Positions 1,236-23,287 of a stretch of DNA of 64,000 nucleotides are shown piece after piece. The stretch comes from an uncultured Pseudomonadota bacterium (lineage in GTDB: Bacteria > Pseudomonadota > Gammaproteobacteria > Steroidobacterales > Steroidobacteraceae), in the NCBI GenBank assembly GCA_903929455.1, contig CAIYVA010000110.1, forward strand, positions 14,651 to 78,650, in the 5' to 3' direction. The stretch's first letter is position 1. Every line of letters begins with the position of its first letter. The translations under genes and the position numbers were made by a program. A model generated the notes under the pieces. The model ran no database searches and was not told where the DNA came from. It worked only from the letters and a program-made list of their open reading frames with translations.

Positions 1236-2867
1236 TCAATTGGTAGCGCCCGTGAGCTGCAACGCACTGGCCATTTGCTCGCGTAGTTTAAATTTCATGA
1301 CCTTTCCGGATGGCGTCAACGGCAAGCGATCAACGAACACCACGTAACGGGGCACTTTCCAGCGCGACACGCGCTCCAAACACCAGCTGCGGATATCCTC
1401 AGGTGTGGGCACTGACCCCGGCACCAAGACAACCACTGCGCACACTTCCTCACCGTACTTGACGTCCGGCACGCCCACCACAGCGACCGTACTGACATCG
1501 GGATGTTGCAGCAGCAGACCTTCAATCTCGATCGGCGATAGATTTTCGCCACCGCGTATAATCATGTCTTTCGAGCGGCCCACAATCGTCACAAAACCCT
1601 GTGGATCCATCGTGGCCAAATCACCCGAATGGAGCCAGCCTTCCGCATCAATGGTCTGAGCAGTTTGCTCTGGGTCGCGATAGCCCATCATACGACCAGG
1701 ACCCTGATAGCACAGCTCCCCGCGCACCCCATGCGGCACGATGCCGCCCGCTTGATCAACCAGCTTAATGCTCACACCTGGGGCTGCCACCCCACAGGTC
1801 GTTGCTTTTTTCTCAACAGGATCATCCGCTGAGGTACTTGAGGTAACACCACAGGTCTCGGTTTGGCCATACCCATTAATCAGCTGTGCGCCAAAGCGCC
1901 GCTCCCATATGGGGATCAACTCGACCGGCACTTGGGCGCCACCAATGATCAGCAGCTGCAACGCGGACAGATCTCGCTGTGCAAAACTCGGATCATCCAG
2001 CATGGCGATCACCATAGTCGGTACACCGGCAAATACCCGACAGCGCTCTTGCTCCAGTAGCTCCAACGTCCGATCCGCTTTAAAAATTCGTACTGGCAGC
2101 GTGGTCGCACCGATCAAGGCAGCACCTGGCGTGAAGACACCCGAACCACCCACGTGAAACAGCGGAAATGCACTGCACACACGATCTCCCGACTCAATGC
2201 CATAGCGTCGATGGGCATTGAGCGCCGATGTGACGATGGCATTGGAGGACAGCTGGGCGGCTTTCGGATTGCCCGTCGTCCCTGAGGTGTACTGAATCAT
2301 GAATAAACGATCGGGATCGACTACCGGAAAATCACGCGTATCTGATGCCCCCGCCATCAGTGCACGGACTCCGTTAGAGAAGGAATAAATACCCAATAAA
2401 TTCGGCAATTGCGGCGCCACAGCCTCAATCACGGACCGCAGTTGCACACCACTGACCTCATCCGCATGAAAAATGCAGCGCACCTGCACGACGTCTAAGG
2501 CATATAACAGCTCAGCCTGCTTATAGAGCGGATTTAAAGTCACAATGACCAAGCCCGCCCGCGAGATCGCGTACTCAATGAGTATCCACTCCGGATAACT
2601 GGGGCCCCAAACCGCCACTCGATCACCCACTTGATACCCTAAGGACAGCAAGCCAGCAGCTAGCTTCGAGACCTGCTGATCAAGCTGCTGGTAGGTCAGT
2701 CGTACCGCGTCCAGCCCGGGCTCTGGCGCTGAGACCACCGCCTCCCGATCAGGCCACTGTTTCGCCGCACGCCGCAAGGCATCCGACAGCGTGAGACCAA
2801 GGCTCTGAGCCTCGGCTGACTCAGCCATCCACACCGACCGATCAGGATCAGGACGCAGCACACTCAT
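1236..2867 (-). CDS. AMP-dependent acyl-CoA synthetase/ligase (FadD-like)
   Basis: Motifs YTSGTTGNPKA, GYGQTE, SGDLA and PLTPSGKVMKFKL. The ORF extends to 3086, but homology-like sequence begins at Met74 (MSVLRPDP...), whose ATG is at 2867. Confidence 0.85.
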   Translation of the reverse strand: MSVLRPDPDRSVWMAESAEAQSLGLTLSDALRRAAKQWPDREAVVSAPEPGLDAVRLTYQQLDQQVSKLAAGLLSLGYQVGDRVAVWGPSYPEWILIEYAISRAGLVIVTLNPLYKQAELLYALDVVQVRCIFHADEVSGVQLRSVIEAVAPQLPNLLGIYSFSNGVRALMAGASDTRDFPVVDPDRLFMIQYTSGTTGNPKAAQLSSNAIVTSALNAHRRYGIESGDRVCSAFPLFHVGGSGVFTPGAALIGATTLPVRIFKADRTLELLEQERCRVFAGVPTMVIAMLDDPSFAQRDLSALQLLIIGGAQVPVELIPIWERRFGAQLINGYGQTETCGVTSSTSADDPVEKKATTCGVAAPGVSIKLVDQAGGIVPHGVRGELCYQGPGRMMGYRDPEQTAQTIDAEGWLHSGDLATMDPQGFVTIVGRSKDMIIRGGENLSPIEIEGLLLQHPDVSTVAVVGVPDVKYGEEVCAVVVLVPGSVPTPEDIRSWCLERVSRWKVPRYVVFVDRLPLTPSGKVMKFKLREQMASALQLTGATN

Positions 2868-3045
2868 GGGTTCACACCGCTTAAGCACATAGGCCACACT
2901 GTATCGTCGAGCGCACGCCGCGTCACCCCTAAGCGAGCGCTCAATGTGACATCCGACGTCTAAAGAACAAGACGGGCACAATTCCGTTATAGTGACTGCC
3001 TTGGGAAAATTAAGCCATCGATCCATCGCGCGGAGTGCACCTCTC

Positions 3046-3562: not shown

Positions 3563-4351
3563 TTACGCGGTGAGGTATTTGACGATGGTGCTCGAAAGAC
3601 TGCCAATCATCTGCTCATCGGTGAGCTTTGGTGATGGATCTTCGAGATGCGCATCAATCACGCCGACACATAGGTAAGTCGACACATGAGTCGCTGTTTC
3701 AATATCAGCCACCTTAATTTCATCGCGGTGGTTGGAGAAAAACAAATACGTCGTTGAATACAGAAACATCTCAGGCTTCAACTGCTCCGAATCCTGACAT
3801 ACCTGCGTCGCCTCGCGAGGCAGTCTCCGAACGAGGAATACACTCTTTCTCCTCAGTTCCAATACCAAACGAATCAGCTCAACCATACATTCGGCCAGCG
3901 GCCTGTGCATTGCTGTCAGCATGAACTTTCGAACCGGTTCGCTGTTATTGACGACCAAGGTTTCCACGAGTGCTGCGACAATGGCTTCCTTTCGGGGGAA
4001 ATACTGATACACCGTGCCGATGCTCACACCTGCTACCTGTGCGATGTAATTAGTGGTCGCGTACTCATAGCCTCTAGTCAATATGATTGACTCAGCAGCC
4101 TGCAAAATACATTCGACCGTAAATCGAGCGCGCGGTTGCTTTGGAATCTTAGGCGACGAAGCAGACGCTTCTATTCCCTGATTTGATTTCCCTGCTTTTG
4201 CTTTGACACGGGATTTGGTGATTGCGACACCAGCATCATTCGGTGCTGCCATCGTATCGTATGAGTGAGCCAAATCGCCCGCACTCAGTGGGCCCGCGTT
4301 GGCAATACGCGGTGCTTTGACTTTACGCAATGAAGACACGCCAGCAGCCAT
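3563..4351 (-). CDS. TetR-family transcriptional regulator with a ~75-aa basic N-terminal extension
   Basis: HTH region YATTNYIAQVAGVSIGTVYQYFPRKEAIV. Paralogue of the adjacent TetR. The start is uncertain (Met1 at 4351 or Met34 at 4252). Confidence 0.85.
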   Translation of the reverse strand: MAAGVSSLRKVKAPRIANAGPLSAGDLAHSYDTMAAPNDAGVAITKSRVKAKAGKSNQGIEASASSPKIPKQPRARFTVECILQAAESIILTRGYEYATTNYIAQVAGVSIGTVYQYFPRKEAIVAALVETLVVNNSEPVRKFMLTAMHRPLAECMVELIRLVLELRRKSVFLVRRLPREATQVCQDSEQLKPEMFLYSTTYLFFSNHRDEIKVADIETATHVSTYLCVGVIDAHLEDPSPKLTDEQMIGSLSSTIVKYLTA

Positions 4352-4384: not shown

Positions 4385-5005
4385 CTATTTGGTGAGGTAT
4401 TTGATAATCGCACTCGATAGATGTTCAATCATCTGCTCATCGGTGAGCTTAGGCGATGGATCTTCAAGATGTGCATTAATAACGCCCACGCATAAATATT
4501 CCGACACATACATTGCCATTTCGATATCGTCGATTTTGATTTCGTCGCGATGATGAGTAAAAAAAGCATGAATAGTGGAGTACAAAAAGGTTTCGGGCGT
4601 CAACTGCTCTGAGTCTTCACCTATCTTGGTGGCATCACGAGGCAGTCGCCGGAATAAAAAAGCGCTTTTTTTCCGATTATTTAGCACCAAACGAATCAGT
4701 TCCGGCATGCACTCAGCGAATGGCCTATGCATCGACGCCAGCAGATACTTGCGGACAGGCTCCGTGCTATTGACCACCAGATTTTCAAGCAAGGCAGCCA
4801 CAATCGCTTCTTTACGAGGGAAGTACTGATACACCGTGCCAATGCTCACGCCCGCTACCTGCGCGATGTAATTGGTGGTGGCGTATTCGTAGCCTTTCTT
4901 TGAAATGATTAATTCAGCAGCCTGCAGGATGCAGTCAACAGTCACACGCGCACGAGGCTGCGTGGGCGCCTTACGCTTCGAGGTGGTCTGTTCCAATGCC
5001 TTCAT
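4385..5005 (-). CDS. TetR-family transcriptional regulator
   Basis: 206 aa with an HTH identical to the neighbour's (YATTNYIAQVAGVSIGTVYQYFPRKEAIV). It lies 33 nt upstream of the paralogue on the same strand. Confidence 0.9.
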   Translation of the reverse strand: MKALEQTTSKRKAPTQPRARVTVDCILQAAELIISKKGYEYATTNYIAQVAGVSIGTVYQYFPRKEAIVAALLENLVVNSTEPVRKYLLASMHRPFAECMPELIRLVLNNRKKSAFLFRRLPRDATKIGEDSEQLTPETFLYSTIHAFFTHHRDEIKIDDIEMAMYVSEYLCVGVINAHLEDPSPKLTDEQMIEHLSSAIIKYLTK

Positions 5006-5354
5006 ATATATCCTGGCTCCGCCCTACCGATCGGGCCGACGGCCTATCGTCTTCAAGCACCATCGCCATTCGGCCATCGGGCAGGTTGTGAAAGCGCTGT
5101 TTCAAAAGGACCACGCCAGACAATACCCTAGCCCGCATGGACAACTTGAGCATGACAGATCAGCTACCATTTGTTAATAAGCCCGCGCTCCCCCACGACG
5201 TATTAAAACAACACGCGCACCTAGGGCACCGGCCTTACAAGGGCGTTTGGCGGTCTGGTAACACCGAGAAATCGCAAGTGAGACCGGACCTTAGACCGCT
5301 TAGGGCGCTGACGGCTCTGCTGGTGTTTTGAGCCGAGGGGTTGGATCTGACTCC

Positions 5355-6125
5355 TCAGTCACGAGCGGCGCGCGCTCGTTTGATCAAGGCGCGTGTCTCA
5401 TCAGTCACCCAGCCGGTGACACTCGCGTGCTCCGGCGATTCCATCGGCGCATCAAAAATATCAGCCAAATCCGCGCGCACGAGGGCGCGTGTCTTTTGAT
5501 AGGCCTGAACGGGTAAGGCCGCAAGCTCATGCGCCAGTTCGAGTGCACGCGCAATGACCTGATCCGGCTCTGACAGCTCATCGACCAGCCCACACGCGAA
5601 GGCCTGATCGGAGGCCAACATGAGGCCCCGTGTCAGCATCGAGGCGGATTGGGTGATGCCCACTAAGCGTATCAGGCAGCGATAGAGGCGCTGGCCTGGA
5701 TAGAGACCGACCTTCACTTCGCTGAAGCCCATCCGGAACTCGCCACGCGCCATGATGCGATGATCACACAAGATCGCGAGTACAGCCGCACCAGCCGGGC
5801 ACTGACCGGTGATCGCTGCCACCACGGGGAATGGGGAACGCACCAATCGCACCTGCAATGCACGAAAAGCCAATACCAAGGCGCGTACCGACTCATCGCT
5901 CTCAACGACCTCACGGACATCAAGCCCTGCCGAGAACACACCCGGCAGACCCGACAACACGACTGCCCGTAGTCGCATAGGATCCATCGCCAAATCTTCA
6001 GCCGTCCGCAGTGCCTCGTCGAGAGCCTCCACCAAGCGGCGGTTGAGCGCATTGACAGGAGGCTGCGCCAATCGCACCTCCCGCACCAAACCATGATCAA
6101 TGATCTCCAGCATGAGTCTTGACAC
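5355..6125 (-). CDS. enoyl-CoA hydratase/isomerase (crotonase family)
   Basis: 256 aa with crotonase-type oxyanion-hole segments VVLSGLPGVFSAGLDV and VVAAITGQCPAGAAVLA. Confidence 0.85.
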   Translation of the reverse strand: MSRLMLEIIDHGLVREVRLAQPPVNALNRRLVEALDEALRTAEDLAMDPMRLRAVVLSGLPGVFSAGLDVREVVESDESVRALVLAFRALQVRLVRSPFPVVAAITGQCPAGAAVLAILCDHRIMARGEFRMGFSEVKVGLYPGQRLYRCLIRLVGITQSASMLTRGLMLASDQAFACGLVDELSEPDQVIARALELAHELAALPVQAYQKTRALVRADLADIFDAPMESPEHASVTGWVTDETRALIKRARAARD

Positions 6126-6369
6126 CTCTGTGAGCCCGCCTCGCTATAGTGATGACTCTGGCGCGGCACAGCAAGCGCACAGGGCACGCGCACCCGGCCC
6201 CTCTGACACCCAACCATCTGATCGACCTTCCGCGCGCATGTCGCCTTAAAACCGTAGCAAACACAAGGCATTGACGGATCCACAGGCCAAGGAAGCGAGT
6301 TAATTTCGAGCGCTGATCGGTGCTACAGTCAGCCCATCGGCCTAATGCCAATTGACTGAGGAAAAACGG

Positions 6370-7272
6370 ATGCTGACCGGGAAAGTGGTGGTGGTGACAG
6401 GTGCTGGCAACGGCGTCGGTGCGGAAATTGCAAAGCTCGCTGCCCGATATGGCGCGCAAGTGGTCGTGAATGACGCCGGGGTATCCACATCCGGCGAAGG
6501 ACGCGACCCGACGGTTGCTAAGAGCATGGTCGCTGAGATCGTCGCCAAAGGCGGCAAGGCCATTGCCAGTGTCCGCGATGTGGCGGACTGGGACGATGCG
6601 CAGGGCATCATTCAAGATGCCATCGATGCCTTTGGTCGCGTGGATGCCGTCATCAATAATGCAGGTGTCGTACGCGATGCCATGTTCCACAAGATGACGA
6701 AAGAGGAATTTGACTTCGTCGACAGCGTTAACCTGCGTGGCGTTTTTTACGTATCACGTGCCGCCGCACCGTATTTCAAAGAGCAAAAAAGTGGTTGTTA
6801 CGTCCACATGACCTCAACCAGTGGTCTGATTGGCAATATCGGTCAAGTGAACTACGGCGCCACCAAAATGGGTGTGGTGGGTTTATCTAAGTGCATCGCG
6901 ATGGACATGAACCGCTACGGGGTCACCACCAACGTAATAGCCCCGTTTGCCTGGACACGCATGGTAGCGACTGTCCCCGAGACACCTGAAAACCAGCGGC
7001 GCTTAGAAATGGCGCGACGACTGAAGCCTGAGAAAATCGCCCCCATGGTCGTGGCATTGGCAAGTGACGCAGGTCGCAACACCACCGGACAAATCTTCGG
7101 CGTCCGTAACAACGAAATTTTTCTATTCAGTCAACCAAGACCCATTCGCAGCGCCCACACCGCGGAGGGTTGGACGCCAGAAACGGTCGTTGAGCGTGTC
7201 CTCGCGTCCTTCCAACCGAGTTATACGTCGCTTGAACGCTCCAGTGACATCTTCAGCTGGGATCCAGTGTAA
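6370..7272 (+). CDS. short-chain dehydrogenase, MFE-2 N-terminal-type 3-hydroxyacyl-CoA dehydrogenase (Hsd4A-like)
   Basis: TGAGNGVG Rossmann motif, NNAG, and catalytic YGATK. ATG 6370 is preceded by GAGGAA 7 nt upstream; the ORF track starts at TTG 6352. Confidence 0.85.
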   Translation: MLTGKVVVVTGAGNGVGAEIAKLAARYGAQVVVNDAGVSTSGEGRDPTVAKSMVAEIVAKGGKAIASVRDVADWDDAQGIIQDAIDAFGRVDAVINNAGVVRDAMFHKMTKEEFDFVDSVNLRGVFYVSRAAAPYFKEQKSGCYVHMTSTSGLIGNIGQVNYGATKMGVVGLSKCIAMDMNRYGVTTNVIAPFAWTRMVATVPETPENQRRLEMARRLKPEKIAPMVVALASDAGRNTTGQIFGVRNNEIFLFSQPRPIRSAHTAEGWTPETVVERVLASFQPSYTSLERSSDIFSWDPV

Positions 7273-7302
7273 GCCTTTTAGGCTCACCATCCGCCAGTCG
7301 AT

Positions 7303-8166
7303 ATGAACCTGCAAGCGCTACAAAATCATCAGTTCCCAAGCCAGCGCTTCACCTATAGCGCAAAGGACACGGCCCTGTATGCGCTCAGTGTTGGCGTGGG
7401 CAGCGACCCACTCGATACCCACCAGCTACGTCTCGTCTATGAAAAGACGCTGCAGGCATTGCCCACCCTCGCGTCAGTGATTGCTATGCCAACACCGTGG
7501 GTTCGAAACCCAGCCTTCGATGTGCATTACGCAAAACTATTACACGGTGAACAGACCTTAACCATCCATACACCGCTGCCGGCGAGCGCTGAGGTGCAAG
7601 CCCACTATCGAGTGATCGCGGTCGATGACAAAGGCGCCGACAAAGGAGCGCTACTGCATTTTGAGCGAGCCATCTCCGATGCCGCCACCGGTGAGGCTTT
7701 ATGTACGGTGACCTCATCACTGTTTCTACGCGCTGATGGGGGATGCGGTGGTTTTGGCACACCGCCAGCCTCAGCACCCGCGGCACCCGCACACGCGTTC
7801 TCAGGCACGCCGGACTTCACCGATGAGCTCACCACTGCTGTGAGCTCTGCCTTGCTGTACCGACTCAATGGCGATCTTAATCCGCTCCATATTGACCCGG
7901 CAGCCGCCACCGCTGGCGGTTTCGATCGGCCCATTCTGCATGGCCTATGCACCTATGGAGTGGCAGGATACTTGTTAGTCCGAACCGCGTGCGATCACGA
8001 CCCAATGCGACTGCGCGCGCTCAACGTGCGTTTTAAGTCGCCGGTCTATCCAGGTGAAACCATTCGCTTAGAGGCTTGGCACGGACCGGATGGTATTTAT
8101 TTTCAAGCGGTCGTCCCAAAACGCAAGCAAGTCGTTCTGAGCAACGGTTTTGCTCGCATCCAATGA
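7303..8166 (+). CDS. MaoC-type (R)-specific enoyl-CoA hydratase, double hot-dog (MFE-2 hydratase-2 / Hsd4B-like)
   Basis: 287 aa with the hydratase-2 motif YRLNGDLNPLHIDPAAA in the C-terminal half. It follows the MFE-2-type SDR. Confidence 0.8.
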   Translation: MNLQALQNHQFPSQRFTYSAKDTALYALSVGVGSDPLDTHQLRLVYEKTLQALPTLASVIAMPTPWVRNPAFDVHYAKLLHGEQTLTIHTPLPASAEVQAHYRVIAVDDKGADKGALLHFERAISDAATGEALCTVTSSLFLRADGGCGGFGTPPASAPAAPAHAFSGTPDFTDELTTAVSSALLYRLNGDLNPLHIDPAAATAGGFDRPILHGLCTYGVAGYLLVRTACDHDPMRLRALNVRFKSPVYPGETIRLEAWHGPDGIYFQAVVPKRKQVVLSNGFARIQ

Positions 8167-8256
8167 CAACCTCTCCTGTACTGGCCGCCCCGTTAACTCA
8201 AATGCCTTATGCGACCAATGTCTTTCCTATCACAGCGCACCTGACGGAGTCACTGA

Positions 8257-9696
8257 ATGTCTGACCGTGGAATCAAATCATATGCCGCGTACATCCCACG
8301 ACAGCGCATGGATCGTGCCGCTATCGCCGCCGCGCACGCCTGGGCCATGCCTGGCTTAAAAGCTGCCGGCAAAGGTGAGCGTGCATTTTGTAGTTGGGAT
8401 GAAGATGCCATCACCATGAGCGTCGATGCGGTACGTGCCTGCTTAAAAAGCCCACTGGCCAACGCAATCGGCTCGCTCAGCTTTGCCTCAACCACCGCAC
8501 CATTCGCCGATCTACAAAACGCGAGCGTCATTGCAGCGGCCTCTGGACTGAGCGCTCACCTCTCATCTTCAGACGTGGGTGGCTCACTACGTGCAGGCAC
8601 GTCCGCGCTGATTCATGCACTGGAGTCGACTAACGCTACGGACTCAATGGTGGTCGCAGCAGATAATCGACGCGCTAAACCGGCGAGTCCGCAGGAGATG
8701 CAATACGGTGCCGGCAGTGCTGCCGTTCGCACGGGCACAGGCGATCTGATTGCACGCTATCTGGGTAGCGCCAGTGCGGTCAGTCAGTTTGCCGATCATT
8801 TTCGCAGCAGCGGGCAATCCTATGACTACCACTGGGAAGAACGCTGGGTTCGTGACGAGGGTTATCTCAAGATTGTCCCGGAAGTCGTTGAAAGACTCTT
8901 TAAGAACACGGGCGTATCGGCGGCACAAATCGATTATTTTTGTCTCGCAGCCACCATCTCAGGCGTCGCACCGGCGGTTGCCAAGAAACTGAAGATCCGC
9001 CCCGACGCCGTAGTGGACAACTTAGCCAGTCGCTGCGGTGACAGCGGCGCTGCGCATCCGTTAATGATGCTCGCGCTCGCGCTTGAGACCGCCAAGCCCG
9101 GACAGCGCATCCTCGTTATCGGCTTTGGAGCAGGCGCTGATGCGCTGCTGTTTGAAGCCACCGAGGCGTTGACGTCCTACCGCTCAGCTGCGACCGTCAG
9201 CGATCAGGTGGCGCGTGGGGTCACGGACAAGAATTACACCAAGTTATTGTCGTTCAGCGGTGAGCTTGAGCTCGATTGGGGTATGCGCGCGGAGTTTGAT
9301 GCAAAAACATCGCTTACCCAGCTGTATCGTTCTAGCGATCAAATCATCTCTTTTATCGGCGGTCGGTGTACGGCGTGCGGCGCGATCCAATTCCCGCGCA
9401 TGTCAGCCTGCGTCCAATGCGGCTCAGATGGCGCCCTCGCGCCGACCCCACTGGCCGATGAAGCGGCGAAAGTCGCCACCTTCACAGCCGACTGGCTACA
9501 GTACTATCCAGCGCCACCACTCTATGTGGGTCTAGTGCAATTCGACAACGGGGCACGCACTTTGATGGAAATGGTAGACATCGTGCCAGACAAGTTTGAT
9601 GTGGGCCTACCGCTTCGTATGGTGTTTAGAATCAAAGAACGCGACGGACTACGTCATCATCATCGCTACTTTTGGAAAGCAACGCCGGTAGGCTGA
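8257..9696 (+). CDS. HMG-CoA-synthase/KAS III-like thiolase-fold domain (apparently lacking the catalytic triad) fused to a DUF35 zinc-ribbon/OB-fold domain
   Basis: N-terminal YIPRQR, WDEDAITMSVDA, GAGSAAV and GFGAG resemble HMGCS. The C-terminus has CTAC-x10-CVQC followed by an OB-like segment (PLYVGLVQFDNG...RMVF). Confidence 0.7.
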   Translation: MSDRGIKSYAAYIPRQRMDRAAIAAAHAWAMPGLKAAGKGERAFCSWDEDAITMSVDAVRACLKSPLANAIGSLSFASTTAPFADLQNASVIAAASGLSAHLSSSDVGGSLRAGTSALIHALESTNATDSMVVAADNRRAKPASPQEMQYGAGSAAVRTGTGDLIARYLGSASAVSQFADHFRSSGQSYDYHWEERWVRDEGYLKIVPEVVERLFKNTGVSAAQIDYFCLAATISGVAPAVAKKLKIRPDAVVDNLASRCGDSGAAHPLMMLALALETAKPGQRILVIGFGAGADALLFEATEALTSYRSAATVSDQVARGVTDKNYTKLLSFSGELELDWGMRAEFDAKTSLTQLYRSSDQIISFIGGRCTACGAIQFPRMSACVQCGSDGALAPTPLADEAAKVATFTADWLQYYPAPPLYVGLVQFDNGARTLMEMVDIVPDKFDVGLPLRMVFRIKERDGLRHHHRYFWKATPVG

Positions 9697-9715
9697 GCCC
9701 GTTTAAGGAATCATT

Positions 9716-10918
9716 ATGGCAACTGGCATTAAAGACAAAGTCGCGATCATTGGCATGGGCTGCTCCAAGTTTGGAGAGCGCTGGGATTGCGGGACAGAAC
9801 ACCTGTTGAACGAGGCGTTCCAAGAAGCCCTGCTCGATGCGGGCATCGAAAAAAGCCGCATCGGCGCAGCATGGTATGGCTCAGCCGTGGATCGCGTTAA
9901 TGTCGGCACCTCCGCCATTCCCGCCGCGACCGCATTGCGTCTGGGGGGCATTCCCTTCACGCGGGTCGAGAACATGTGCGCGACGGGGACGGAGGCGCTT
10001 CGCGGTGCAGCCTACGCAGTGGCAGCGGGTGTGGTGGATATTGCGCTAGCCATCGGTGCAGAAAAACTCAAAGACACCGGCTACGGCGGGCTACCCATCG
10101 GCACGCGAGGCACACTGAATGATTTAGTGCTACCGGCCACATCAGCGCCAGGCGGATTCGCGCAGCTAGCGGCGGGTTATCGCGCGCGCTACGGGGTGTC
10201 GAGACAGGATTTAAAGAATGCCATGGCACGCGTGTCATGGAAGAGCCATCAGAACGGCGCTAAAAATCCTAAAGCCCATCTACAAAAAGAAGTAGACCTT
10301 GACACCATTCTCAACGCACCACTGATTGCCGATCCACTGGGCATTTACGACTGCTGCGGGGTGAGCGATGGCGCTGCGTGTGCAATCGTCACGACGCCTG
10401 AGATCGCGCGCTCCTTAGGCAAGCGGGATATGGTCACGATCAAGGCACTACAGCTGTCACTGAGCGCCGGTGTTGAGATCGGCACCGCAGATTGGGACGG
10501 CAGCTACGTTCGAAATACGCGCATAGCGGCGCAAAAAGCCTACGCGGAAGCGGGTATTCGCAATCCTCGCAAAGAAGTCAGCATGATGGAAGTACACGAT
10601 TGCTTCTCCATCACCGAACTGGTGACCATGGAAGACCTAGGTATTTCGTCTGATGGTGGCGCGGTGAAGGACATTATGGATGGATTTTTTGACGCGGATG
10701 GCGGTGTGCCCTGTCAGATCGATGGCGGTCTTAAATGCTTCGGTCACCCCATCGGCGCCACAGGCCTTCGAATGGCTTATGAAAATTATCTGCAACTACT
10801 CGGTCGCGCAGGCAAACGTCAGTTGAAAAATCCTGTGATCGGTCTGAGCCATAACTTGGGTGGCGTGCCTTACAACTGCCTTGCAGCGATTGCTATTCTT
10901 GGGTTGGCGTCACGTTAA
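9716..10918 (+). CDS. SCP-x / lipid-transfer-protein-type thiolase
   Basis: 400 aa. VENMCATG (nucleophile Cys), HDCFSITE (SCP2-thiolase HDCF motif) and GHPIGATG are all present. Confidence 0.85.
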   Translation: MATGIKDKVAIIGMGCSKFGERWDCGTEHLLNEAFQEALLDAGIEKSRIGAAWYGSAVDRVNVGTSAIPAATALRLGGIPFTRVENMCATGTEALRGAAYAVAAGVVDIALAIGAEKLKDTGYGGLPIGTRGTLNDLVLPATSAPGGFAQLAAGYRARYGVSRQDLKNAMARVSWKSHQNGAKNPKAHLQKEVDLDTILNAPLIADPLGIYDCCGVSDGAACAIVTTPEIARSLGKRDMVTIKALQLSLSAGVEIGTADWDGSYVRNTRIAAQKAYAEAGIRNPRKEVSMMEVHDCFSITELVTMEDLGISSDGGAVKDIMDGFFDADGGVPCQIDGGLKCFGHPIGATGLRMAYENYLQLLGRAGKRQLKNPVIGLSHNLGGVPYNCLAAIAILGLASR

Positions 10919-10957
10919 TATCCAACAATATCGAGTCAGGTGGCTGGAGCTTGCGTG

Positions 10958-11467
10958 ATGACTGATCTCCCTAGCATCGTCAAGTCATGGATCGGGACTG
11001 CGGTCGTCGTCGTCGAGCGGACCGTCACGGTTGAAAAAGAATCCTGGCTCGGCTTTTGCGCTGCCATCCAGGATGGTAATCCACTGTATTGGGATGAATC
11101 CTTCGCCCAATCACATACGGAGCGCACCATCGCTCCCTTCGCGATGCTGCCCAGCTGGGGCAGTACGCACCCTTGGTACCCCGGCAAGCAAAGCGATGGC
11201 ATCCGTGCCATGGAATTGCATTTCATGCTGAAGGAGGCGCTTAGCTACCCCAATGGCATCGTCACCAGCGTAGAGATGGCTTATCACGAGCCGGTGCGCG
11301 CGGGGGACTCGGTGCGAGTAGAGCAGATTTTACGATCCGTGAGCGATGAACGAGCGACCCGACTAGGGCCCGGCAGGGATTGGACCATCGAGGTGGTTTA
11401 TCGCCGGCAGGATCACGTGCTGCTGGGCTTAGAGACCATGTCATTCCTAGGCTATCGCCGCAACTAA
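10958..11467 (+). CDS. MaoC_N-type hot-dog protein (ChsH1-like hydratase subunit)
   Basis: About 170 aa single hot-dog (GNPLYWDESFA...) directly upstream of a MaoC dehydratase gene. ATG 10958 has GGAG 9 nt upstream; the ORF track starts at GTG 10940. Confidence 0.65.
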   Translation: MTDLPSIVKSWIGTAVVVVERTVTVEKESWLGFCAAIQDGNPLYWDESFAQSHTERTIAPFAMLPSWGSTHPWYPGKQSDGIRAMELHFMLKEALSYPNGIVTSVEMAYHEPVRAGDSVRVEQILRSVSDERATRLGPGRDWTIEVVYRRQDHVLLGLETMSFLGYRRN

Positions 11468-11483
11468 GCCCAAAGGATCGACC

Positions 11484-11945
11484 ATGAACCCTAACCTGGC
11501 TCTACACGCCCCATTGCCCACCCGACGCATCGAGGTGACCACTAAGTCCATCATCATGGGTGCGGTGACGAGCCGCGATTGGGCGCCATTACACCACGAT
11601 GTGGTGTGGGCGAAGACCGAGGGCAATCTGCCTGACATCATCATGAACAACTACACCCAAGCAGGACTGATCAATGCCTATGTGACGGATTGGTCAGGGC
11701 CAGCCGCTCGGGTCGGTCGTTTGCGTTTTTCCATGCGAAGCCCTATTTGCCCAGGCGATGCCTTAGAGCTGTCCGGCGTGATTGAAGCCATTGAGCCTGA
11801 ACCTGAGCTGATCTGGGTGAGTCTTGCGATCGAGTTAACGGTCGGTGAACGAGTGGCCACTCGATCAACGGTGCGAGTAGCCTTGCCGGCCAGCGAGCAG
11901 TCCCCCTCGCTGTGGCATCGTCAAGCCGGTGCGTGGAAGCCCTGA
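11484..11945 (+). CDS. MaoC-like dehydratase subunit (ChsH2-core-like, no DUF35)
   Basis: 153 aa single hot-dog with the degenerate hydratase motif SRDWAPLHHD. It starts 16 nt after the preceding hot-dog gene. Confidence 0.7.
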   Translation: MNPNLALHAPLPTRRIEVTTKSIIMGAVTSRDWAPLHHDVVWAKTEGNLPDIIMNNYTQAGLINAYVTDWSGPAARVGRLRFSMRSPICPGDALELSGVIEAIEPEPELIWVSLAIELTVGERVATRSTVRVALPASEQSPSLWHRQAGAWKP

Positions 11946-11977
11946 CAGCCGAACACGGTCGATGACAAACCTCCCCT

Positions 11978-12955
11978 ATGAAAGCCATCCTCTGCCACGC
12001 CTTCGGTCCGATCGACACACTGCGCTACGAAGACACCGACGATCCACTGTGCGGGCCCGGCCAAGTCCTCATCGAGGTCATGGCGGCCGGCGTTAACTTC
12101 CCCGATGCCCTGTTGGTACGCGGTGAGTACCAAAGCAAACCGCCTCTTCCCTTCATTCCAGGTAGCGAGGTCGCGGGCTTTGTTAAAGCGCTCGGTGTGG
12201 GCGTGCAAGGATTGAGCGTCGGTGATCGCGTCGCTGCTTTTTGCGGCACAGGAGGCTATGCCACTCAGGCAGTCGTACCTGCCTCTCACGTCTTTCCGCT
12301 ACCCGCCCAAGTGCCTTTCACCACCGCCGCCGGCATGGTGGTGACCTACGGTACGTCGTATCACGCTCTGAAGGATCGCGCGCAGCTTTGCTCAGGCGAG
12401 CGGCTGCTGGTACTCGGCGCCGCTGGCGGCGTTGGTCTGGCAGCCGTTGAACTCGGCAAGCACCTAGGTGCTACCGTCGTCGCCGCCGCCTCGACGCCCG
12501 CTAAACTGGCCATCGCCACGGCCCATGGGGCGGATGACGTACTCGACTACAGCACCGTCGACCTACGCACTGAGCTCAAACGGCGCTTTGCAAAAGGGAT
12601 CGACGTCGTAGTCGACCCGGTGGGCGGCGACTTCAGCGAGGCGGCGCTTCGCAGCCTCGCTTGGGCCGGTCGCTATCTCGTAGTCGGATTTACGGCTGGA
12701 CGGATTCCAGCCATTCCAAGCAATCTCTTACTACTCAAAAGTGCAGCCCTGTTGGGTGTGCTATGGGGTGCCACGCTTAAAGCTGACCCGATACAACAGG
12801 CAGCCAACCTACAGATACTCTTTTCGTTAGTAGCCAACGGCTCACTCACGCCTTTCATTGAATCCGTACAGCCACTGAGTGAGGCCCCGACTGTGCTGAC
12901 ACGACTGATGTCGCGACAAGTCACCGGCAAAATTGTCTTGTCGATGAGCGCCTAA
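11978..12955 (+). CDS. NADPH:quinone oxidoreductase / MDR zinc-type alcohol dehydrogenase family
   Basis: GVNFPDALLVRGEY and LVLGAAGGVGLAAVELGK (Qor-like cofactor motif). Confidence 0.85.
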   Translation: MKAILCHAFGPIDTLRYEDTDDPLCGPGQVLIEVMAAGVNFPDALLVRGEYQSKPPLPFIPGSEVAGFVKALGVGVQGLSVGDRVAAFCGTGGYATQAVVPASHVFPLPAQVPFTTAAGMVVTYGTSYHALKDRAQLCSGERLLVLGAAGGVGLAAVELGKHLGATVVAAASTPAKLAIATAHGADDVLDYSTVDLRTELKRRFAKGIDVVVDPVGGDFSEAALRSLAWAGRYLVVGFTAGRIPAIPSNLLLLKSAALLGVLWGATLKADPIQQAANLQILFSLVANGSLTPFIESVQPLSEAPTVLTRLMSRQVTGKIVLSMSA

Positions 12956-12979
12956 AGGACCCAATCGGTCCGATCAATA

Positions 12980-14200
12980 CTAACGCGGCTTGAAAGTGAT
13001 CGGTACGTCGCAATAGCCCTGCAGGAATTCCGTAAAGGTGCGTTTACAGCGATCCATCTGCACCTCATACTCAGGGATCGCCGCCATAATTTCCTCTAGG
13101 ATCACTCTGCCCTCCATACGCGCGAGGTGCTGACCTAAACACGCATGAATGCCGGCACCGAACGACAAGGTACGACTCGGCCGACGCGAGATCTGAAACT
13201 GATCTGCATCTGGAAACTCTCGCTCATCACGATTAGCCGAAGCGAACAAGAAGATCACATTCTGTCCGACCTTAATCTTCTCACCATGCAACTCATGATC
13301 CACAGTCACCCGACGCCCAAGCACGTTGGTCGGCTGATCGTAACGGGCGGTCTCAGCAAAAGCATGCGGAATTAAACCACGATCCGCGCGAACCTCTGCG
13401 TATTGCTTAGGGTGCTTAGCCAGATAGTAAATCGTGCCAGCCGCAGTCAGCGCCACCGTATCTGATCCTGTGATCACGAGCGAAAATATAGTGAAAAATA
13501 CTTCGTCATCGCTGGCCAGTTGCCCGTCCATCGGCGTTGTCATAAAGGTGTGGATATGAGTGCCCGGTGGCGGCAGTGTCACGCGGAACTGACGCACCAG
13601 TCCCATAATAAACGCATGCAACTCTCCGAACGCCTGCATGCCTTGTGGGGTCATGCCTTTCACGCCAGGTTCACGATAAAACCAGATATCTAGCAGCGCT
13701 CGAATGTGCGTGATGTCGGGATACGACAGGCCGATAATGTCAGCAATGGTGTACAAAGCGACTTTGGCGGAAAAGCCATAGATCTCTAACTCCCCTCGCT
13801 CTAAATGCGGCGCCATGAACTCTCGAGTGCGCGCGCGGAACCGCTCCTCTAATAACGCTGCTGACGTTTTTCCATAGGGGGGATTCAGCAGATTTCGTCG
13901 GCTGGTGTGCGCCGGTGGATCCATAAAAACAAAAGCAGACGGCTTAGGGCCCTCCGTGATGAGCGCATCGATCGTGGTGCCCATCGTTGCGGTGTAATGG
14001 GTTCGATCCATGCTGGCGTGCATCACATCCTCAAAGCGCGACAAGGCCCACATGTTTAAGTGCTCAACAAAGTAAGCGGGCGCTTCATCACGCATGCGCC
14101 GAAAAGTTGGCCATGGGTTAGCCAAGAACACTTCGTCGTGGGGATCATAATAATTAGGCACGGCGGATATCCCGTTAGATGAGGGCTGCCAAACCGTCAA
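12980..14200 (-). CDS. cytochrome P450 monooxygenase
   Basis: Heme-thiolate loop FGAGIHACLG, ETARYD (ExxR) and AGTIYYL/TGSDTV I-helix-like segments. The conserved N-terminus (YDPHDEVFLANPWPTFRRMRDEAP) precedes the first ATG, so a non-ATG start is implied (TTG at 14200). Confidence 0.85.
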   Translation of the reverse strand: MTVWQPSSNGISAVPNYYDPHDEVFLANPWPTFRRMRDEAPAYFVEHLNMWALSRFEDVMHASMDRTHYTATMGTTIDALITEGPKPSAFVFMDPPAHTSRRNLLNPPYGKTSAALLEERFRARTREFMAPHLERGELEIYGFSAKVALYTIADIIGLSYPDITHIRALLDIWFYREPGVKGMTPQGMQAFGELHAFIMGLVRQFRVTLPPPGTHIHTFMTTPMDGQLASDDEVFFTIFSLVITGSDTVALTAAGTIYYLAKHPKQYAEVRADRGLIPHAFAETARYDQPTNVLGRRVTVDHELHGEKIKVGQNVIFLFASANRDEREFPDADQFQISRRPSRTLSFGAGIHACLGQHLARMEGRVILEEIMAAIPEYEVQMDRCKRTFTEFLQGYCDVPITFKPR

Positions 14201-14539
14201 TCGGACGGCGTCTGCAGCTGGTTGTCAGAGCCAATGCAGCCACCCCATCCTAGGGTGCACGCCGACTCAGTTTATACTCGTTTAGGCAGTCGTCTCGGCC
14301 ATCGACTAGGGTGACGCGACGATTTTTAAATTAGATAAAATACTGAGATTATTCAGATACTTATGATTTTTTACCTTGCTGCCGCCGCGGCGCCAAGCCA
14401 ACACCGCCGAAGCGTGCGGTATGAGTACCAACTGAGTACCCGCAACGCCATGATTCACCTAGCAAGCTCCGGCCGCCGAACCGATCACACTGGGTGAGAT
14501 GGCCGGATCTAACTCGGACCACCGAAACGGATAGATGTT

Positions 14540-15730
14540 ATGGATTTTGACTTCAGCGCCGATGAAAAACGCTTTATTGAGGAAGTACGTGCCTTCCTCC
14601 GCGAGCAGGCCTTGCTACCCGATGCCGCCGATGTGATGGCACCCAATCGTGATTCAGACTCAATGCTCTCCGATACGCCCGCACGTCGCCGATTCAACCG
14701 TGAAATGGCCAAACGCGGCTACCTCGGTATGTCGTGGCCTAAGGAATACGGTGGCAGTGAAAAGAGTGGTATCTACGAGTATCTACTCAATGAAGAATTG
14801 GCGCGGGTCGGCGCGCCGCTCATCGGCAAAGGCATCGGCATCGTCGGCAAGACATTGATCCGCCATGGATCAGACAAATTAAAAACCGAGTTTTTACCGC
14901 AGATCCGAAACGCAGAGATCGAATTCGCACTCGGCTACTCAGAGCCCGGTGCTGGCTCTGATCTGGCCTCACTCAAACTGAAAGCGGAACGAAGCGGTGA
15001 CGGCTGGCTGTTCAATGGACAGAAAATATGGAACACCTCAGCGCATTTTGCCGATTGGTATTGGCTGGCGGCACGAACCGATACGCAAGTTGCCAAACAC
15101 AAAGGCATCAGCTTATTTCTCGTACCGATGAATCAGAAAGGTATTACGGTCTCCGCTATCCACACACTCGGCGAACACCGTACGAATCACGTCTTCCTCG
15201 ATAACGTCTGGGTGCACGACGATTACCGTGTCGGAGAACTGAACAAAGGTTGGACCTATATCTCAGAAGCACTCGATTTTGAGCGCTTCACCATTTACCC
15301 ATTCAGCCCACTCGAAGCCAAACTAGAACAGATGTGGACGCACGTCAAAAGCACTCAACGCAATGGCAAACCATTAACTGCCGTACCCGAGATACGCCGC
15401 CAAATGGCGCGCCTGGTGGCCCAAGTGGAGACCGCGAAAATGCTCCAACGCAGCGTTATTTTCTCAGCCTCACAAGGCGGCGTTCCAACCGTCGAAGCAT
15501 CGATGTGTAAGCTGTACACCACCGCGCTCTCGCAACGGCTAGCGAATACCATGATAGATATCCTCGGTGCAGACGGGCTGCTACATAAGTCCTGGCCCGA
15601 TGCACCTGATGGCGGTAAGTGGGAGTGGCTCTATCGCTCCAGTGCGCTAGAGACCATCGGCGCAGGCACCTCAGAGATCCAGAAAAACATCATTGCACGC
15701 CGCGGTCTCGGCCTTCCTTTAACGAACTGA
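14540..15730 (+). CDS. acyl-CoA dehydrogenase
   Basis: 396 aa with ACAD architecture: YSEPGAGSDLASL, WNTSAHFADW, and C-terminal GAGTSEIQKNIIA. Confidence 0.85.
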   Translation: MDFDFSADEKRFIEEVRAFLREQALLPDAADVMAPNRDSDSMLSDTPARRRFNREMAKRGYLGMSWPKEYGGSEKSGIYEYLLNEELARVGAPLIGKGIGIVGKTLIRHGSDKLKTEFLPQIRNAEIEFALGYSEPGAGSDLASLKLKAERSGDGWLFNGQKIWNTSAHFADWYWLAARTDTQVAKHKGISLFLVPMNQKGITVSAIHTLGEHRTNHVFLDNVWVHDDYRVGELNKGWTYISEALDFERFTIYPFSPLEAKLEQMWTHVKSTQRNGKPLTAVPEIRRQMARLVAQVETAKMLQRSVIFSASQGGVPTVEASMCKLYTTALSQRLANTMIDILGADGLLHKSWPDAPDGGKWEWLYRSSALETIGAGTSEIQKNIIARRGLGLPLTN

Positions 15731-15851: not shown

Positions 15852-17012
15852 ATGGATCTTATTTTTAGTGAAGAGCAGCAAATGCTGCGCGATATGACTC
15901 GTCGCCTGTGCGAGGACTTCGCTCCATTGACCGTACTCAGACAATTGGAAGGCACTGAGCCTGGTTACTCCGACGATTTTTGGAAAGCGCTGATCGACGC
16001 CGGCATGTCGGGTCTTACCATTGCCGATAAAGATGGCGGTTTAGGCTTAGGCGCGACTGAGATGATGATCGTACACGAGGAGTTTGGCAGAGCACTGGCA
16101 TTCTCACCCCATTTTGTGAGCTCAGTGCTCGCGGCTCACCTCATCAGCACAACCGGCAACACCGCTCAGCGCCAGCGGTGGCTCCCGTCTATTGCCAGTG
16201 GACAATCGATTGTCAGTATCGGCAGTCTGGAGCCACAGGGCGGGCATGAGCTATCAGATATCCAGTGCTCAGCGAAGCGCACCGCCACCGGCTATCGCCT
16301 ATCCGGCACGAAACACTTCGTGGCCTATGCCGCCCGCGCACACGCTGCTGTGATCTTGGCCCGCGTCGGCACAGCCACAGATGATGTGATCGCCCTACTG
16401 GTTGATTTAAAAAGCCCTGGTGTTTCGATCCAATATCAGCCTAATCACGCGCGCGAAGCGGTCTACCAAGTCACCTTGCGGGACGTTGATGTCTCTATTG
16501 AAGACGCGCTCAAAGATGGCCAGCCCATGGCGACTGAATGGCAAGATGCCATGTACAGCGGGTTAATCGCGTTGGCCGCCCAAGCGGTCGGCGGTGCTGA
16601 ACGCGCGCATGCGATGGCAGTGGAGTATGCCAAAGTGCGCGAAGCCTTCGGCAAACCGATTGGCTCATTCCAAGCAGTTGCCCACAGCCTAGCGGATGTG
16701 GCTGTCGACATCGAAGGCTGTCGCATGCTGGTTCGTCAGGCTGCCTGGGCTAAGGATAGAGGTTATGACTTTCACCGCGTCGCCGCCATTGCGAAGCTAC
16801 AAGCCTGCGAAATGTATCGCCGCACCGCGGGGGTGACCATCCAAGTTCATGGCGGCATTGGCTTCACCAATGACGCGGATCCCCAGTTATTTTTCCGCCG
16901 CGCCAAGCACTTGCAGCTACTGCATTGGGACTCGGACTACCTCGAGGAGCGTATCATCGAGATGGTACTGCAGGAGACGTCAGAGCTCAGCGCCCATGGG
17001 GCTAACGGATAA
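15852..17012 (+). CDS. acyl-CoA dehydrogenase-family protein, probably a non-catalytic partner subunit
   Basis: 386 aa with the ACAD fold (GKPIGSFQAVAH, IQVHGGIGFT). I find no acidic residue at either known catalytic-base position. Confidence 0.75.
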   Translation: MDLIFSEEQQMLRDMTRRLCEDFAPLTVLRQLEGTEPGYSDDFWKALIDAGMSGLTIADKDGGLGLGATEMMIVHEEFGRALAFSPHFVSSVLAAHLISTTGNTAQRQRWLPSIASGQSIVSIGSLEPQGGHELSDIQCSAKRTATGYRLSGTKHFVAYAARAHAAVILARVGTATDDVIALLVDLKSPGVSIQYQPNHAREAVYQVTLRDVDVSIEDALKDGQPMATEWQDAMYSGLIALAAQAVGGAERAHAMAVEYAKVREAFGKPIGSFQAVAHSLADVAVDIEGCRMLVRQAAWAKDRGYDFHRVAAIAKLQACEMYRRTAGVTIQVHGGIGFTNDADPQLFFRRAKHLQLLHWDSDYLEERIIEMVLQETSELSAHGANG

Positions 17013-22156: not shown

Positions 22157-22225
22157 CTTCCTACTCCTTCAATGAAAGCGCCCATCTGCGCTTATGTAAG
22201 TGTGAACAGTAAAACCAATCCGAAT

Positions 22226-23269: not shown

Positions 23270-23287
23270 GATGATCTCCTGTTCCGA

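Follow-up and report, generated by a model that had tools for sequence, protein, structure and literature searches.

A tetrad-less HMG-CoA-synthase-like/DUF35 fusion protein is maintained next to an intact SCP2-type thiolase in a β-oxidation-type gene cluster of a Steroidobacteraceae bacterium

The window analysed in this work is a stretch of 64,000 nucleotides from an uncultured bacterium of the Steroidobacteraceae (assembly GCA_903929455.1, contig CAIYVA010000110.1, positions 14,651 to 78,650 of the forward strand). It contains two adjacent genes, the first encoding a 479-aa protein in which a domain with the fold of 3-hydroxy-3-methylglutaryl-CoA (HMG-CoA) synthase (HMGCS; the domain is called HMGS-like below) is fused to a C-terminal DUF35 module, and the second encoding a 400-aa thiolase of the sterol carrier protein 2 (SCP2) type. 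It was found that the HMGS-like domain has lost the catalytic residues of HMGCS and is kept under selection, with an intact thiolase beside it. Together, the two proteins probably constitute a degradative 3-ketoacyl-CoA thiolase of heteromeric make-up that acts on a bulky acyl-CoA, with the 479-aa protein as a maintained non-catalytic subunit. An earlier annotation made from the sequence alone (the first-pass annotation) had proposed a dead HMGS-like/DUF35 protein as the non-catalytic partner of a real thiolase, and the loss of the catalytic tetrad, the selection, the synteny and the biochemistry of a related Pseudomonas fluorescens complex all support that proposal. The open reading frames (ORFs) have the coordinates and lengths that it gave, 479 aa at 8257–9696 and 400 aa at 9716–10918, with a gap of 19 nt. 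The features of the pair are:

8257–9696, plus strand: HMGS-like/DUF35 fusion gene, 479 aa, putative non-catalytic subunit (ORF, Pfam/NCBIfam, Protein Data Bank (PDB) matches, AlphaFold2/Foldseek, ratio of non-synonymous to synonymous substitution rates (dN/dS))
8257–9186, plus strand: domain with the HMGS/β-ketoacyl-acyl carrier protein synthase III (KAS III) fold, residues 1–310 (alignments to 6esq_I and 5m3k_A)
9187–9327, plus strand: conserved linker from the HMGS-like domain to DUF35, residues 311–357, with the invariant Tyr327 (invariant columns, confident model)
9328–9693, plus strand: DUF35 module, residues 358–479, a C4 zinc ribbon and an oligonucleotide/oligosaccharide-binding (OB) fold (Pfam, PDB matches)
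9367–9420, plus strand: zinc-ribbon cysteines Cys371, Cys374, Cys385 and Cys388 (rubredoxin-like Cys-x2-Cys-x10-Cys-x2-Cys)
9705–9709, plus strand: Shine-Dalgarno sequence AAGGA within the 19-nt gap, 6 nt ahead of the thiolase ATG (sequence)
9716–10918, plus strand: SCP2-type 3-ketoacyl-CoA thiolase, 400 aa, with Cys88, HDCF at 294–297 and GHP at 343–345 (NF004810, PDB matches)

All motifs that had been quoted for the 479-aa protein (YIPRQR, WDEDAITMSVDA, GAGSAAV, GFGAG, ASTT, GGSLRAGT, FCLAAT and CTAC-x10-CVQC) were found in it. The HMGCS/KAS III fold that had been assigned to its N-terminal part was borne out by structure prediction, Foldseek and PDB sequence matches alike. The AlphaFold2 model, with 40 diverse homologues as input, had a pLDDT of 93.7 and a pTM of 0.93. 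Its best Foldseek neighbours were PhlA-type subunits (9skh, 5mg5, 5m3k), archaeal HMGCS (6esq, 6et9) and MucA (9vbo, 9vbt), with bacterial and eukaryotic HMGCS and FabH ranking below them, and the target-normalised TM values of 0.85–0.90 to 6esq_I/J, 6et9_I and PhlA place the domain in the HMGS/KAS-III thiolase fold. By HMMER, the PDB ranking of the HMGS-like domain was PhlA (5m3k_A, 1e-28), the PhlA-type 9skh_A and then archaeal HMGCS (6esq_I, 1e-21). ACP_syn_III_C was detected by Pfam at residues 217–294. Among the NCBIfam models, that of archaeal HMGCS (PRK04262/NF003274) spanned residues 4–327 with 168 bits, under the cut-off of 244, and the other HMGCS equivalogs also stayed below their cut-offs (TIGR00748, 112 vs 353; TIGR01835, 24 vs 360). 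Identity as HMG-CoA synthase (EC 2.3.3.10) was rejected, as the tetrad is absent and the equivalog cut-offs are missed; the fold alone is shared. The C-terminal DUF35 assignment was upheld by Pfam, in which zf-ChsH2 (PF12172, residues 366–391) passed with 31.8 bits against a cut-off of 23.2 and OB_ChsH2_C (PF01796, residues 403–458) lay slightly below its cut-off (25.4 vs 27.1 bits). Residues 358–478 matched 6esq_E at 3e-9 by phmmer, as well as PhlB and the DUF35 part of ChsH2, and the model showed five β strands across residues 395–477, as expected of an OB fold.

The 400-aa protein contains all of the SCP2-thiolase residues previously listed for it (MCATG, HDCF and GHPIGATG), and its Cys88, HDCF and GHP align with those of the archaeal complex thiolase 6esq_A. 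It scored 649.5 bits against the NCBIfam equivalog NF004810 (PRK06157, cut-off 403), and it also matched many NCBIfam SCP2-type "thiolase domain"/lipid-transfer models. Its PDB matches were 7yvy_A, 6esq_A, 6hsj_A and BbsB. Archaeal and SCP2 thiolases were matched at ∼1e-50, whereas PhlC was matched at 1e-13 to 1e-14 and in the C-terminal part only. In the partner thiolases of syntenic loci, Cys88 was present in 70 of 70, HDCF in 70 of 70 and GHP in 68 of 68. Identity as the benzoylsuccinyl-CoA thiolase BbsB was rejected, the score against the BbsB equivalog NF053628 being 130 bits against a cut-off of 750. A PhlC/MucB-type acyltransferase subunit was likewise rejected, given that the His of HDxF is retained here and in the 70 orthologues.

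The first-pass annotation had placed T, L and A by eye at the catalytic Glu, Cys and His of HMGCS. The same assignment was obtained from HMMER alignments to 5m3k_A (PhlA) and 6esq_I and from a 122-sequence MAFFT alignment of the family: Thr79, Leu111, Ala231 and Asp262 sit at Glu82, Cys114, His238 and Asn270 of archaeal HMGCS 6esq_I, and the triad is not intact. Among 120 diverse full-length members (30–76% identical), the catalytic Glu was kept in none, the Cys in none and the His in one, while the four zinc-ribbon cysteines were retained in 107–114. The 479-aa protein is thus predicted from its sequence to be incapable of HMGS chemistry. With a 90%-identical relative as the reference, dN/dS was 0.057 for the whole gene, 0.060 for residues 1–310, 0.029 for the linker and 0.062 for DUF35; against a 76%-identical relative, synonymous sites were saturated and dN alone was usable. 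Because its dN/dS is 0.060, the dead HMGS-like domain is under strong purifying selection and is not decaying.

The first-pass annotation knew of no characterised example of this architecture. The implied novelty does not stand: the architecture was characterised in 2026, and characterised complexes with unfused subunits, PhlACB and MucABC, exist too. Liao et al. (Nat Commun 2026, PMC12960953), the only paper that our literature search found on the physiological role of the fused family, mined 1,030 bacterial loci with co-localised genes for HMGS, for acetyl-CoA acetyltransferase (ACAT) and for DUF35. Their fused HMGS-DUF35 protein from P. fluorescens has no E-C-H-N tetrad, and in its ACAT the Cys, HDxF and GHx are kept. 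No HMG-CoA and no acetoacetyl-CoA were formed by the complex, which did cleave acetoacetyl-CoA by thiolysis, an activity that H294Y in the ACAT HDxF motif nearly abolished; a tetrad-mutated archaeal complex likewise yielded no HMG-CoA (PMC12960953). This PfACAT/HMGS-DUF35 complex has the same two-gene architecture as the window pair, with a tetrad-less HMGS-like/DUF35 fusion, an intact ACAT and no polyketide synthase (PKS) or non-ribosomal peptide synthetase (NRPS) neighbours. It differs in being encoded by a minimal locus without pathway context and in having been assayed on acetoacetyl-CoA only, whereas the window pair lies in a seven-gene, β-oxidation-type operon.

PhlACB, CsATase and MucABC (5M3K/5MG5, 9SKH, 9VBO/9VBT) also combine a dead structural HMGS-like subunit, a DUF35 subunit and an SCP2-thiolase-like catalytic subunit. 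However, they are biosynthetic systems of three separate proteins, and their thiolase-like subunit, which has lost HDxF, acylates phenols or tetramates. At the tetrad positions, PhlA has Cys/Gly/Gln where the window protein has Thr/Leu/Ala; it was reported that PhlA lacks the Cys and Glu, that PhlA and PhlB are considered structural, and that a contiguous chamber connects the PhlA and PhlC sites (PMC6392133). MucB and the archaeal ACAT were insoluble or inactive on their own. All modules of the archaeal thiolase/HMGCS/DUF35 complex 6ESQ are homologous to those of the window pair (HMGCS 1e-21, DUF35 3e-9, thiolase 5e-50), with identical thiolase motifs, but there the HMGCS is active, acetoacetyl-CoA is channelled for mevalonate synthesis and DUF35 is a separate chain. 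BbsAB, ChsH2-Ltp2 and Shy-Sal, which serve to break down bulky CoA esters, each contain an SCP2-type thiolase-fold enzyme that depends on a DUF35 module as its partner; these systems differ in having no HMGS-like domain, and their DUF35 is stand-alone (BbsA) or fused to a MaoC hydratase.

An alternative to a purely structural role is that the HMGS-like domain, beside the thiolase site, carries out a new reaction on the shared CoA ester, such as hydrolysis, decarboxylation, isomerisation or ring opening. The former Glu position is occupied by Thr in 100 of the 120 members, and the invariant columns include D48, E49, T53, R196, R458 and K474; these residues, the strong purifying selection and the contiguous PhlA–PhlC chamber of PhlACB would fit such an activity. 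Nevertheless, the former Cys column (L/Q/R/M/A/V/P/T) and the former His column (P/Y/A/S/N) are highly variable, unlike those of an active site, D48 and E49 belong to a DEDxxT motif that is present in genuine HMGCS and PhlA as well, and the only activity found for the P. fluorescens complex is lost by mutation of ACAT. We therefore consider a new activity unlikely.

The fused family is large. Among 8,000 scored candidates, a word-indexed search gave 4,453 homologues of the 479-aa protein, and the best 120 of the 4,453 (56–99% identity) were nearly all ∼479 aa long with the same domain set. When representatives of clusters at 50% identity were searched exhaustively with HMMER, 2,941 clusters fell within E ≤ 1e-3 and 512 within E ≤ 1e-30, and full-length fused matches reached down to ∼31% identity. 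By a scan of one genome per species, relatives were found in the genomes of at least 598 species, mostly Alpha-, Beta- and Gammaproteobacteria. Databases annotate relatives as '3-hydroxy-3-methylglutaryl CoA synthase'.

The gene neighbourhood was compared across 79 loci. An orthologous thiolase gene was observed immediately downstream on the same strand in 65 of them (median gap ∼30 nt); in the remaining loci the thiolase lay 1–6 kb downstream (4 loci), the contig ended too early (6 loci) or there was none (4 loci). The thiolases were 62–77% identical to that of the window and the HMGS-like partners 43–54%. Annotated Rhodococcus and Azoarcus plasmids showed the same adjacency, as did a Desulfobacterales contig and two further metagenome contigs with distant members (32% and 41% identity). 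These results bear out the co-occurrence in other genomes on which the first-pass annotation had made its reading depend, and they show a tight genetic linkage, in catabolic operons, of the fused protein to an intact SCP2-type thiolase.

In rare relatives of 911 aa (P0154), 722 aa (P0156) and 800 aa (P0171), extra MFE-2-type short-chain dehydrogenase/reductase (SDR) and/or SCP2 domains were found at the C-terminus, MFE-2 being the peroxisomal multifunctional enzyme type 2. At the locus L094:4284-10640, one such fusion has a 709-aa bacterial MFE-2 fusion (hydratase 2-SDR-SCP2) on one side and the thiolase on the other. These Rosetta-stone fusions to SDR and SCP2 tie the family functionally to R-specific, SCPx-like β-oxidation. 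The L094 fusion also lies downstream of an ACOX-like acyl-CoA dehydrogenase (ACAD) gene and a TetR gene, in what looks like a compact 'peroxisome-like' β-oxidation operon in a bacterium. A 17.4-kb metagenome contig around the relative P0241 (L092) carries two pairs of Ltp and stand-alone DUF35 and one pair of HMGS-like/DUF35 and thiolase, together with three family-III CoA-transferase and three Amidohydro_2 genes. Partnerships of thiolase-fold proteins with DUF35 appear to multiply within single catabolic islands.

It was proposed that 1,001 bacterial loci without biosynthetic partners have 'not yet been recruited' (PMC12960953). In that case the pair would be a leftover of a decayed mevalonate complex with incidental acetoacetyl-CoA thiolase activity only, and many of the 79 loci do consist of the two-gene core alone. 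Decay is difficult to reconcile with a dN/dS of 0.06 and with a fusion kept down to 30% identity, in at least 598 species and 512 clusters (E ≤ 1e-30). The pair also lies consistently in catabolic operons, in one of which it is estrone-induced. A leftover of this kind is thus very unlikely.

In the window, the pair lies inside a tight run of seven genes on the same strand, from an SDR gene to a gene for a quinone-oxidoreductase-type reductase. The genes of the run outside the pair and those around it, with identities to an estrogen-degradation cluster of Novosphingobium sp. ES2-1 (described below), are:

6370–7272, plus strand: (3R)-hydroxyacyl-CoA dehydrogenase of the MFE-2 type (SDR), first gene of the putative operon (Pfam adh_short; 2et6_A)
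7303–8166, plus strand: MFE-2-type enoyl-CoA hydratase 2 (PF22622 and PF01575; PDB 7mku and 1s9c, peroxisomal hydratase 2)
10958–11467, plus strand: MaoC N-terminal-type hot-dog subunit, HadA/ChsH1-like (PF13452; 34% to the ES2-1 MaoC_N protein)
11484–11945, plus strand: MaoC dehydratase subunit, HadB/ChsH2-core-like (PF01575; 43% to the ES2-1 MaoC_C protein)
11978–12955, plus strand: medium-chain dehydrogenase/reductase of the quinone-oxidoreductase/enoyl-reductase type, last plus-strand gene of the run (ADH_N, ADH_zinc_N; TIGR02824 at 238 bits, below cut-off)
12980–14161, minus strand: cytochrome P450 (PF00067; 37% to the EdcA-position P450 of ES2-1)
14540–15730, 15852–17012 and 17096–18259, plus strand: three ACADs (Pfam; PimC/PimD-like pair)
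222–1187, plus strand: type I extradiol dioxygenase, BphC/HsaC-like (Pfam; NCBIfam below cut-off; 37% to the EdcB-position protein of ES2-1)
1236–3026, minus strand: acyl-CoA ligase, FadD3-like (Pfam, NCBIfam; 36% to ES2-1 FadD3)
3563–4351 and 4385–5005, minus strand: two tandem TetR-family regulators (ORFs; PF00440)
5355–6113, minus strand: crotonase-family enoyl-CoA hydratase/isomerase, divergent from the putative operon (PF00378)

A second SDR gene is also found around the seven-gene run, and no PKS or NRPS genes lie near the pair, whose neighbours encode β-oxidation enzymes. A scan of 5000–14600 gave no more promoter-like matches than expected by chance, and its terminator-like matches lay inside genes or on the wrong strand; the operon structure of the run is suggested by gene spacing only. 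The best PDB match of the first SDR was the dehydrogenase of Candida tropicalis MFE-2 (2et6_A, 9e-98), followed by human and rat HSD17B4, and fly MFE-2 was matched too. The operon thus has homologues of both the dehydrogenase and the hydratase-2 domain of peroxisomal MFE-2, beside an SCP2-type thiolase and with family members fused to SDR and SCP2; by contrast, the eukaryotic MFE-2/SCPx system has no HMGS-like or DUF35 partner, and its thiolase itself bears the SCP2 domain as a fusion. The pair appears to be co-transcribed with a split MFE-2 and a heteromeric MaoC hydratase and lies beside ACADs, a P450, a dioxygenase, a ligase and TetR regulators; its most likely role is therefore the thiolytic step on a bulky acyl-CoA.

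The mechanical ORF of the first SDR starts at a TTG at 6352, and the public gene call at an ATG 18 nt later (6370); the shorter form fits the homologues. The tandem TetR regulators are clear paralogues that share long identical stretches (e.g. GYEYATTNYIAQVAGVSIGTVYQYFPRKEAIVAAL), the first of them (3563–4351) having an N-terminal extension of ∼55 aa. Farther along the minus strand, 21023–24250 encodes a GcvT-like aminomethyltransferase, a protein like the α-subunit of haem-dependent oxidative N-demethylase and a DmmA-like Fer2/FAD reductase, which suggests an unrelated N-demethylation module next to the β-oxidation cluster.

In the published edc cluster for estrogen degradation of Novosphingobium (Caenibius) tardaugens, the thiolase gene EGO55_13550 is followed by an estrone-induced 'HMG-CoA synthase' gene, EGO55_13555, the role of which is unexplained in published work. 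A tblastn search of plasmids gave a full-length, 31%-identical match to the window protein on plasmid p3 of Novosphingobium sp. ES2-1, and the gene order there is that of the published edc cluster, with IM701_RS20360/20355 as the pair. The HMG-CoA-synthase slot of ES2-1 is occupied by a 467-aa "OB-fold domain-containing protein" beside an acetyl-CoA acetyltransferase. In this 467-aa protein, Thr and Leu stand in for the catalytic Glu and Cys and a zinc ribbon is present, and its thiolase keeps the Cys, HDCF and GHP; in the sequence comparison, the plasmid gene served as a syntenic stand-in for EGO55_13555. The region around it (L084, positions 130596–155960 of p3) is a complete edc-type cluster on a conjugative (MOBF/MPF_F) plasmid of 200 kb.

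The edc clusters share with the window an adjacent ACAT and fused HMGS-like/DUF35 protein, SDR, ACADs, a MaoC pair, P450, extradiol dioxygenase and TetR; they also have an Ltp with DUF35, as the contig has just upstream of the window. The identities between the window and ES2-1 were 30% for the HMGS-like/DUF35 protein, 36% for the CoA ligase, 31% for the SDR, 44% for the thiolase, 34% and 43% for the MaoC subunits, 37% for the P450, 62% and 37% for the ACADs and 37% for the dioxygenase; the window P450 and dioxygenase belong to the same gene families as the proteins at the EdcA and EdcB positions and may or may not be their orthologues. The first window ACAD (14540–15730) is the one with 62% identity, to the ES2-1 ACAD that precedes the MaoC pair (L084:3785-4972), far above the 30–44% of every other shared protein, which hints at a conserved sub-module of ACAD and heteromeric hydratase. 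The edc clusters differ from the window in gene order and in having an indolepyruvate-ferredoxin-oxidoreductase (IOR)-type enzyme (EdcC), of which no homologue was found in the window; a CoA ligase is present there instead. With ES2-1 counterparts for most of its proteins, the window cluster appears to be built like a cluster for the estrogen (edc) 4,5-seco-type pathway.

A second thiolase-fold/DUF35 pair was observed immediately upstream of window position 1 (L001:1-1424; window coordinate = L001 coordinate – 1744). It consists of a 382-aa Ltp-like protein, which has FYDAF instead of HDCF and no nucleophilic Cys and is in this respect aldolase-type like Ltp2/Sal, and of a stand-alone 145-aa DUF35 protein. 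Both types of DUF35 partnership therefore stand side by side on the contig, as in the edc cluster.

It was also considered that the pair could be a CoA-independent Friedel-Crafts C-acyltransferase (ATase) like PhlACB, MucABC and CsATase, with a phenolic intermediate as the acyl acceptor. The N-terminal domain is matched best, in sequence as well as in structure, by PhlA-type subunits, and the substrate is probably phenolic, given the P450 and the extradiol dioxygenase. Friedel-Crafts ATases have, however, lost the HDxF motif (PMC12960953), whereas HDCF is invariant here; the thiolase scores 1e-50 to archaeal/SCP2 thiolases versus 1e-13 to PhlC, and its neighbours are β-oxidation rather than PKS or NRPS genes. 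Such an acyltransferase is highly improbable. Equally little speaks for the retro-aldolase activity that the first-pass annotation had weighed against thiolysis, with the 400-aa protein as an Ltp2/Sal-type enzyme that relies on its partner's DUF35 in the manner of ChsH2-Ltp2 or Shy-Sal. DUF35-dependent aldolases do exist in steroid side-chain pathways, and MaoC genes follow directly in the window. But a retro-aldolase is unlikely here because HDCF and the nucleophilic Cys88 are kept, while Ltp2 and Sal are aldolases with YDHF or YDCY and no nucleophilic Cys (PMC12329534); by these criteria membership of the Ltp2/Sal aldolases was rejected, and a separate aldolase-type Ltp with its own stand-alone DUF35 is encoded just upstream of the window. 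An anabolic complex forming acetoacetyl-CoA or HMG-CoA, for which the database name of the relatives would speak, is the least probable reading and is refuted by the sequence, with the tetrad lost, the scores under the HMGCS equivalog cut-offs and no HMG-CoA formed by the tetrad-mutated archaeal or the P. fluorescens complex.

In the degradative heteromeric thiolase that we favour, the 400-aa protein would be the only catalytic subunit: the acyl-enzyme would form on its Cys88, and HDCF and GHP would provide the acid/base residues and the oxyanion hole. The HMGS-fold domain, without the Glu, Cys and His for Claisen condensation, would be a maintained pseudo-enzyme. By analogy with 6ESQ, 5M3K (PhlACB) and 9VBO (MucABC), a dimer of it and the tethered DUF35 modules would clamp the thiolase dimer; as such a scaffold, the 479-aa protein would keep the thiolase soluble and conformationally competent, and would line an interfacial chamber for binding of the CoA and acyl moieties. 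The holoenzyme would perform thiolytic C–C cleavage after the MFE-2-type hydratase and dehydrogenase, in an R-specific, peroxisome-like β-oxidation of a presumably bulky, ring-derived or branched acyl-CoA.

Several points weigh against this reading. Binding of the 479-aa protein to the thiolase in this organism is extrapolated from 6ESQ, 5M3K, 9VBO and the P. fluorescens complex, and orthology to PfACAT/HMGS-DUF35 is argued from architecture and motifs only. The pathway context varies, as MFE-2 genes are common to only about one quarter of the loci (SDR in 19, hydratase in 21 and both in 15 of the 79; ACADs in 30), and edc-type identities of 30–62% seem too low to name the substrate. In 23 of the 120 members, a Cys lies no more than two alignment columns from the position of the lost catalytic one, and none has the Glu; these nearby Cys residues may be alignment noise or may mark a subgroup with residual chemistry. 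The Thr79 position is strikingly conserved and the charged residues D48, E49, R196, R458 and K474 are invariant, so the HMGS-like domain may have a residual or new chemical role.

We tentatively go one step further and suggest, as an idea somewhat short of probable, that the pair is a dedicated thiolase of a widespread bacterial R-specific (MFE-2/SCPx-like) β-oxidation, not an unrecruited intermediate, and that the former HMGS cavity has been repurposed as a chamber for bulky acyl groups. If this is true, the thiolase that takes acetyl-CoA off the ring-A cleavage product would have the orphan 'HMG-CoA synthase' of the edc cluster as its partner, and more than 1,000 unannotated bacterial loci would gain a physiological role.

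With the architecture already published, the interest of this locus lies in its context and in the physiological assignment, which was left open and arguably misjudged in PMC12960953. In the single biochemical paper on it, the fused family figures as an evolutionary intermediate that lacks a pathway; synteny, selection and gene fusions instead point to a thiolase holoenzyme that is functional and maintained in catabolic operons, that of the estrogen-degradation cluster included. Members of this very large family are regularly mistaken for HMG-CoA synthase or KAS III in annotation, and mevalonate-pathway capacity should not be inferred from such annotations in genomes and metagenomes. For the estrogen-degradation cluster, a puzzle gene gains an assignment that is directly testable.

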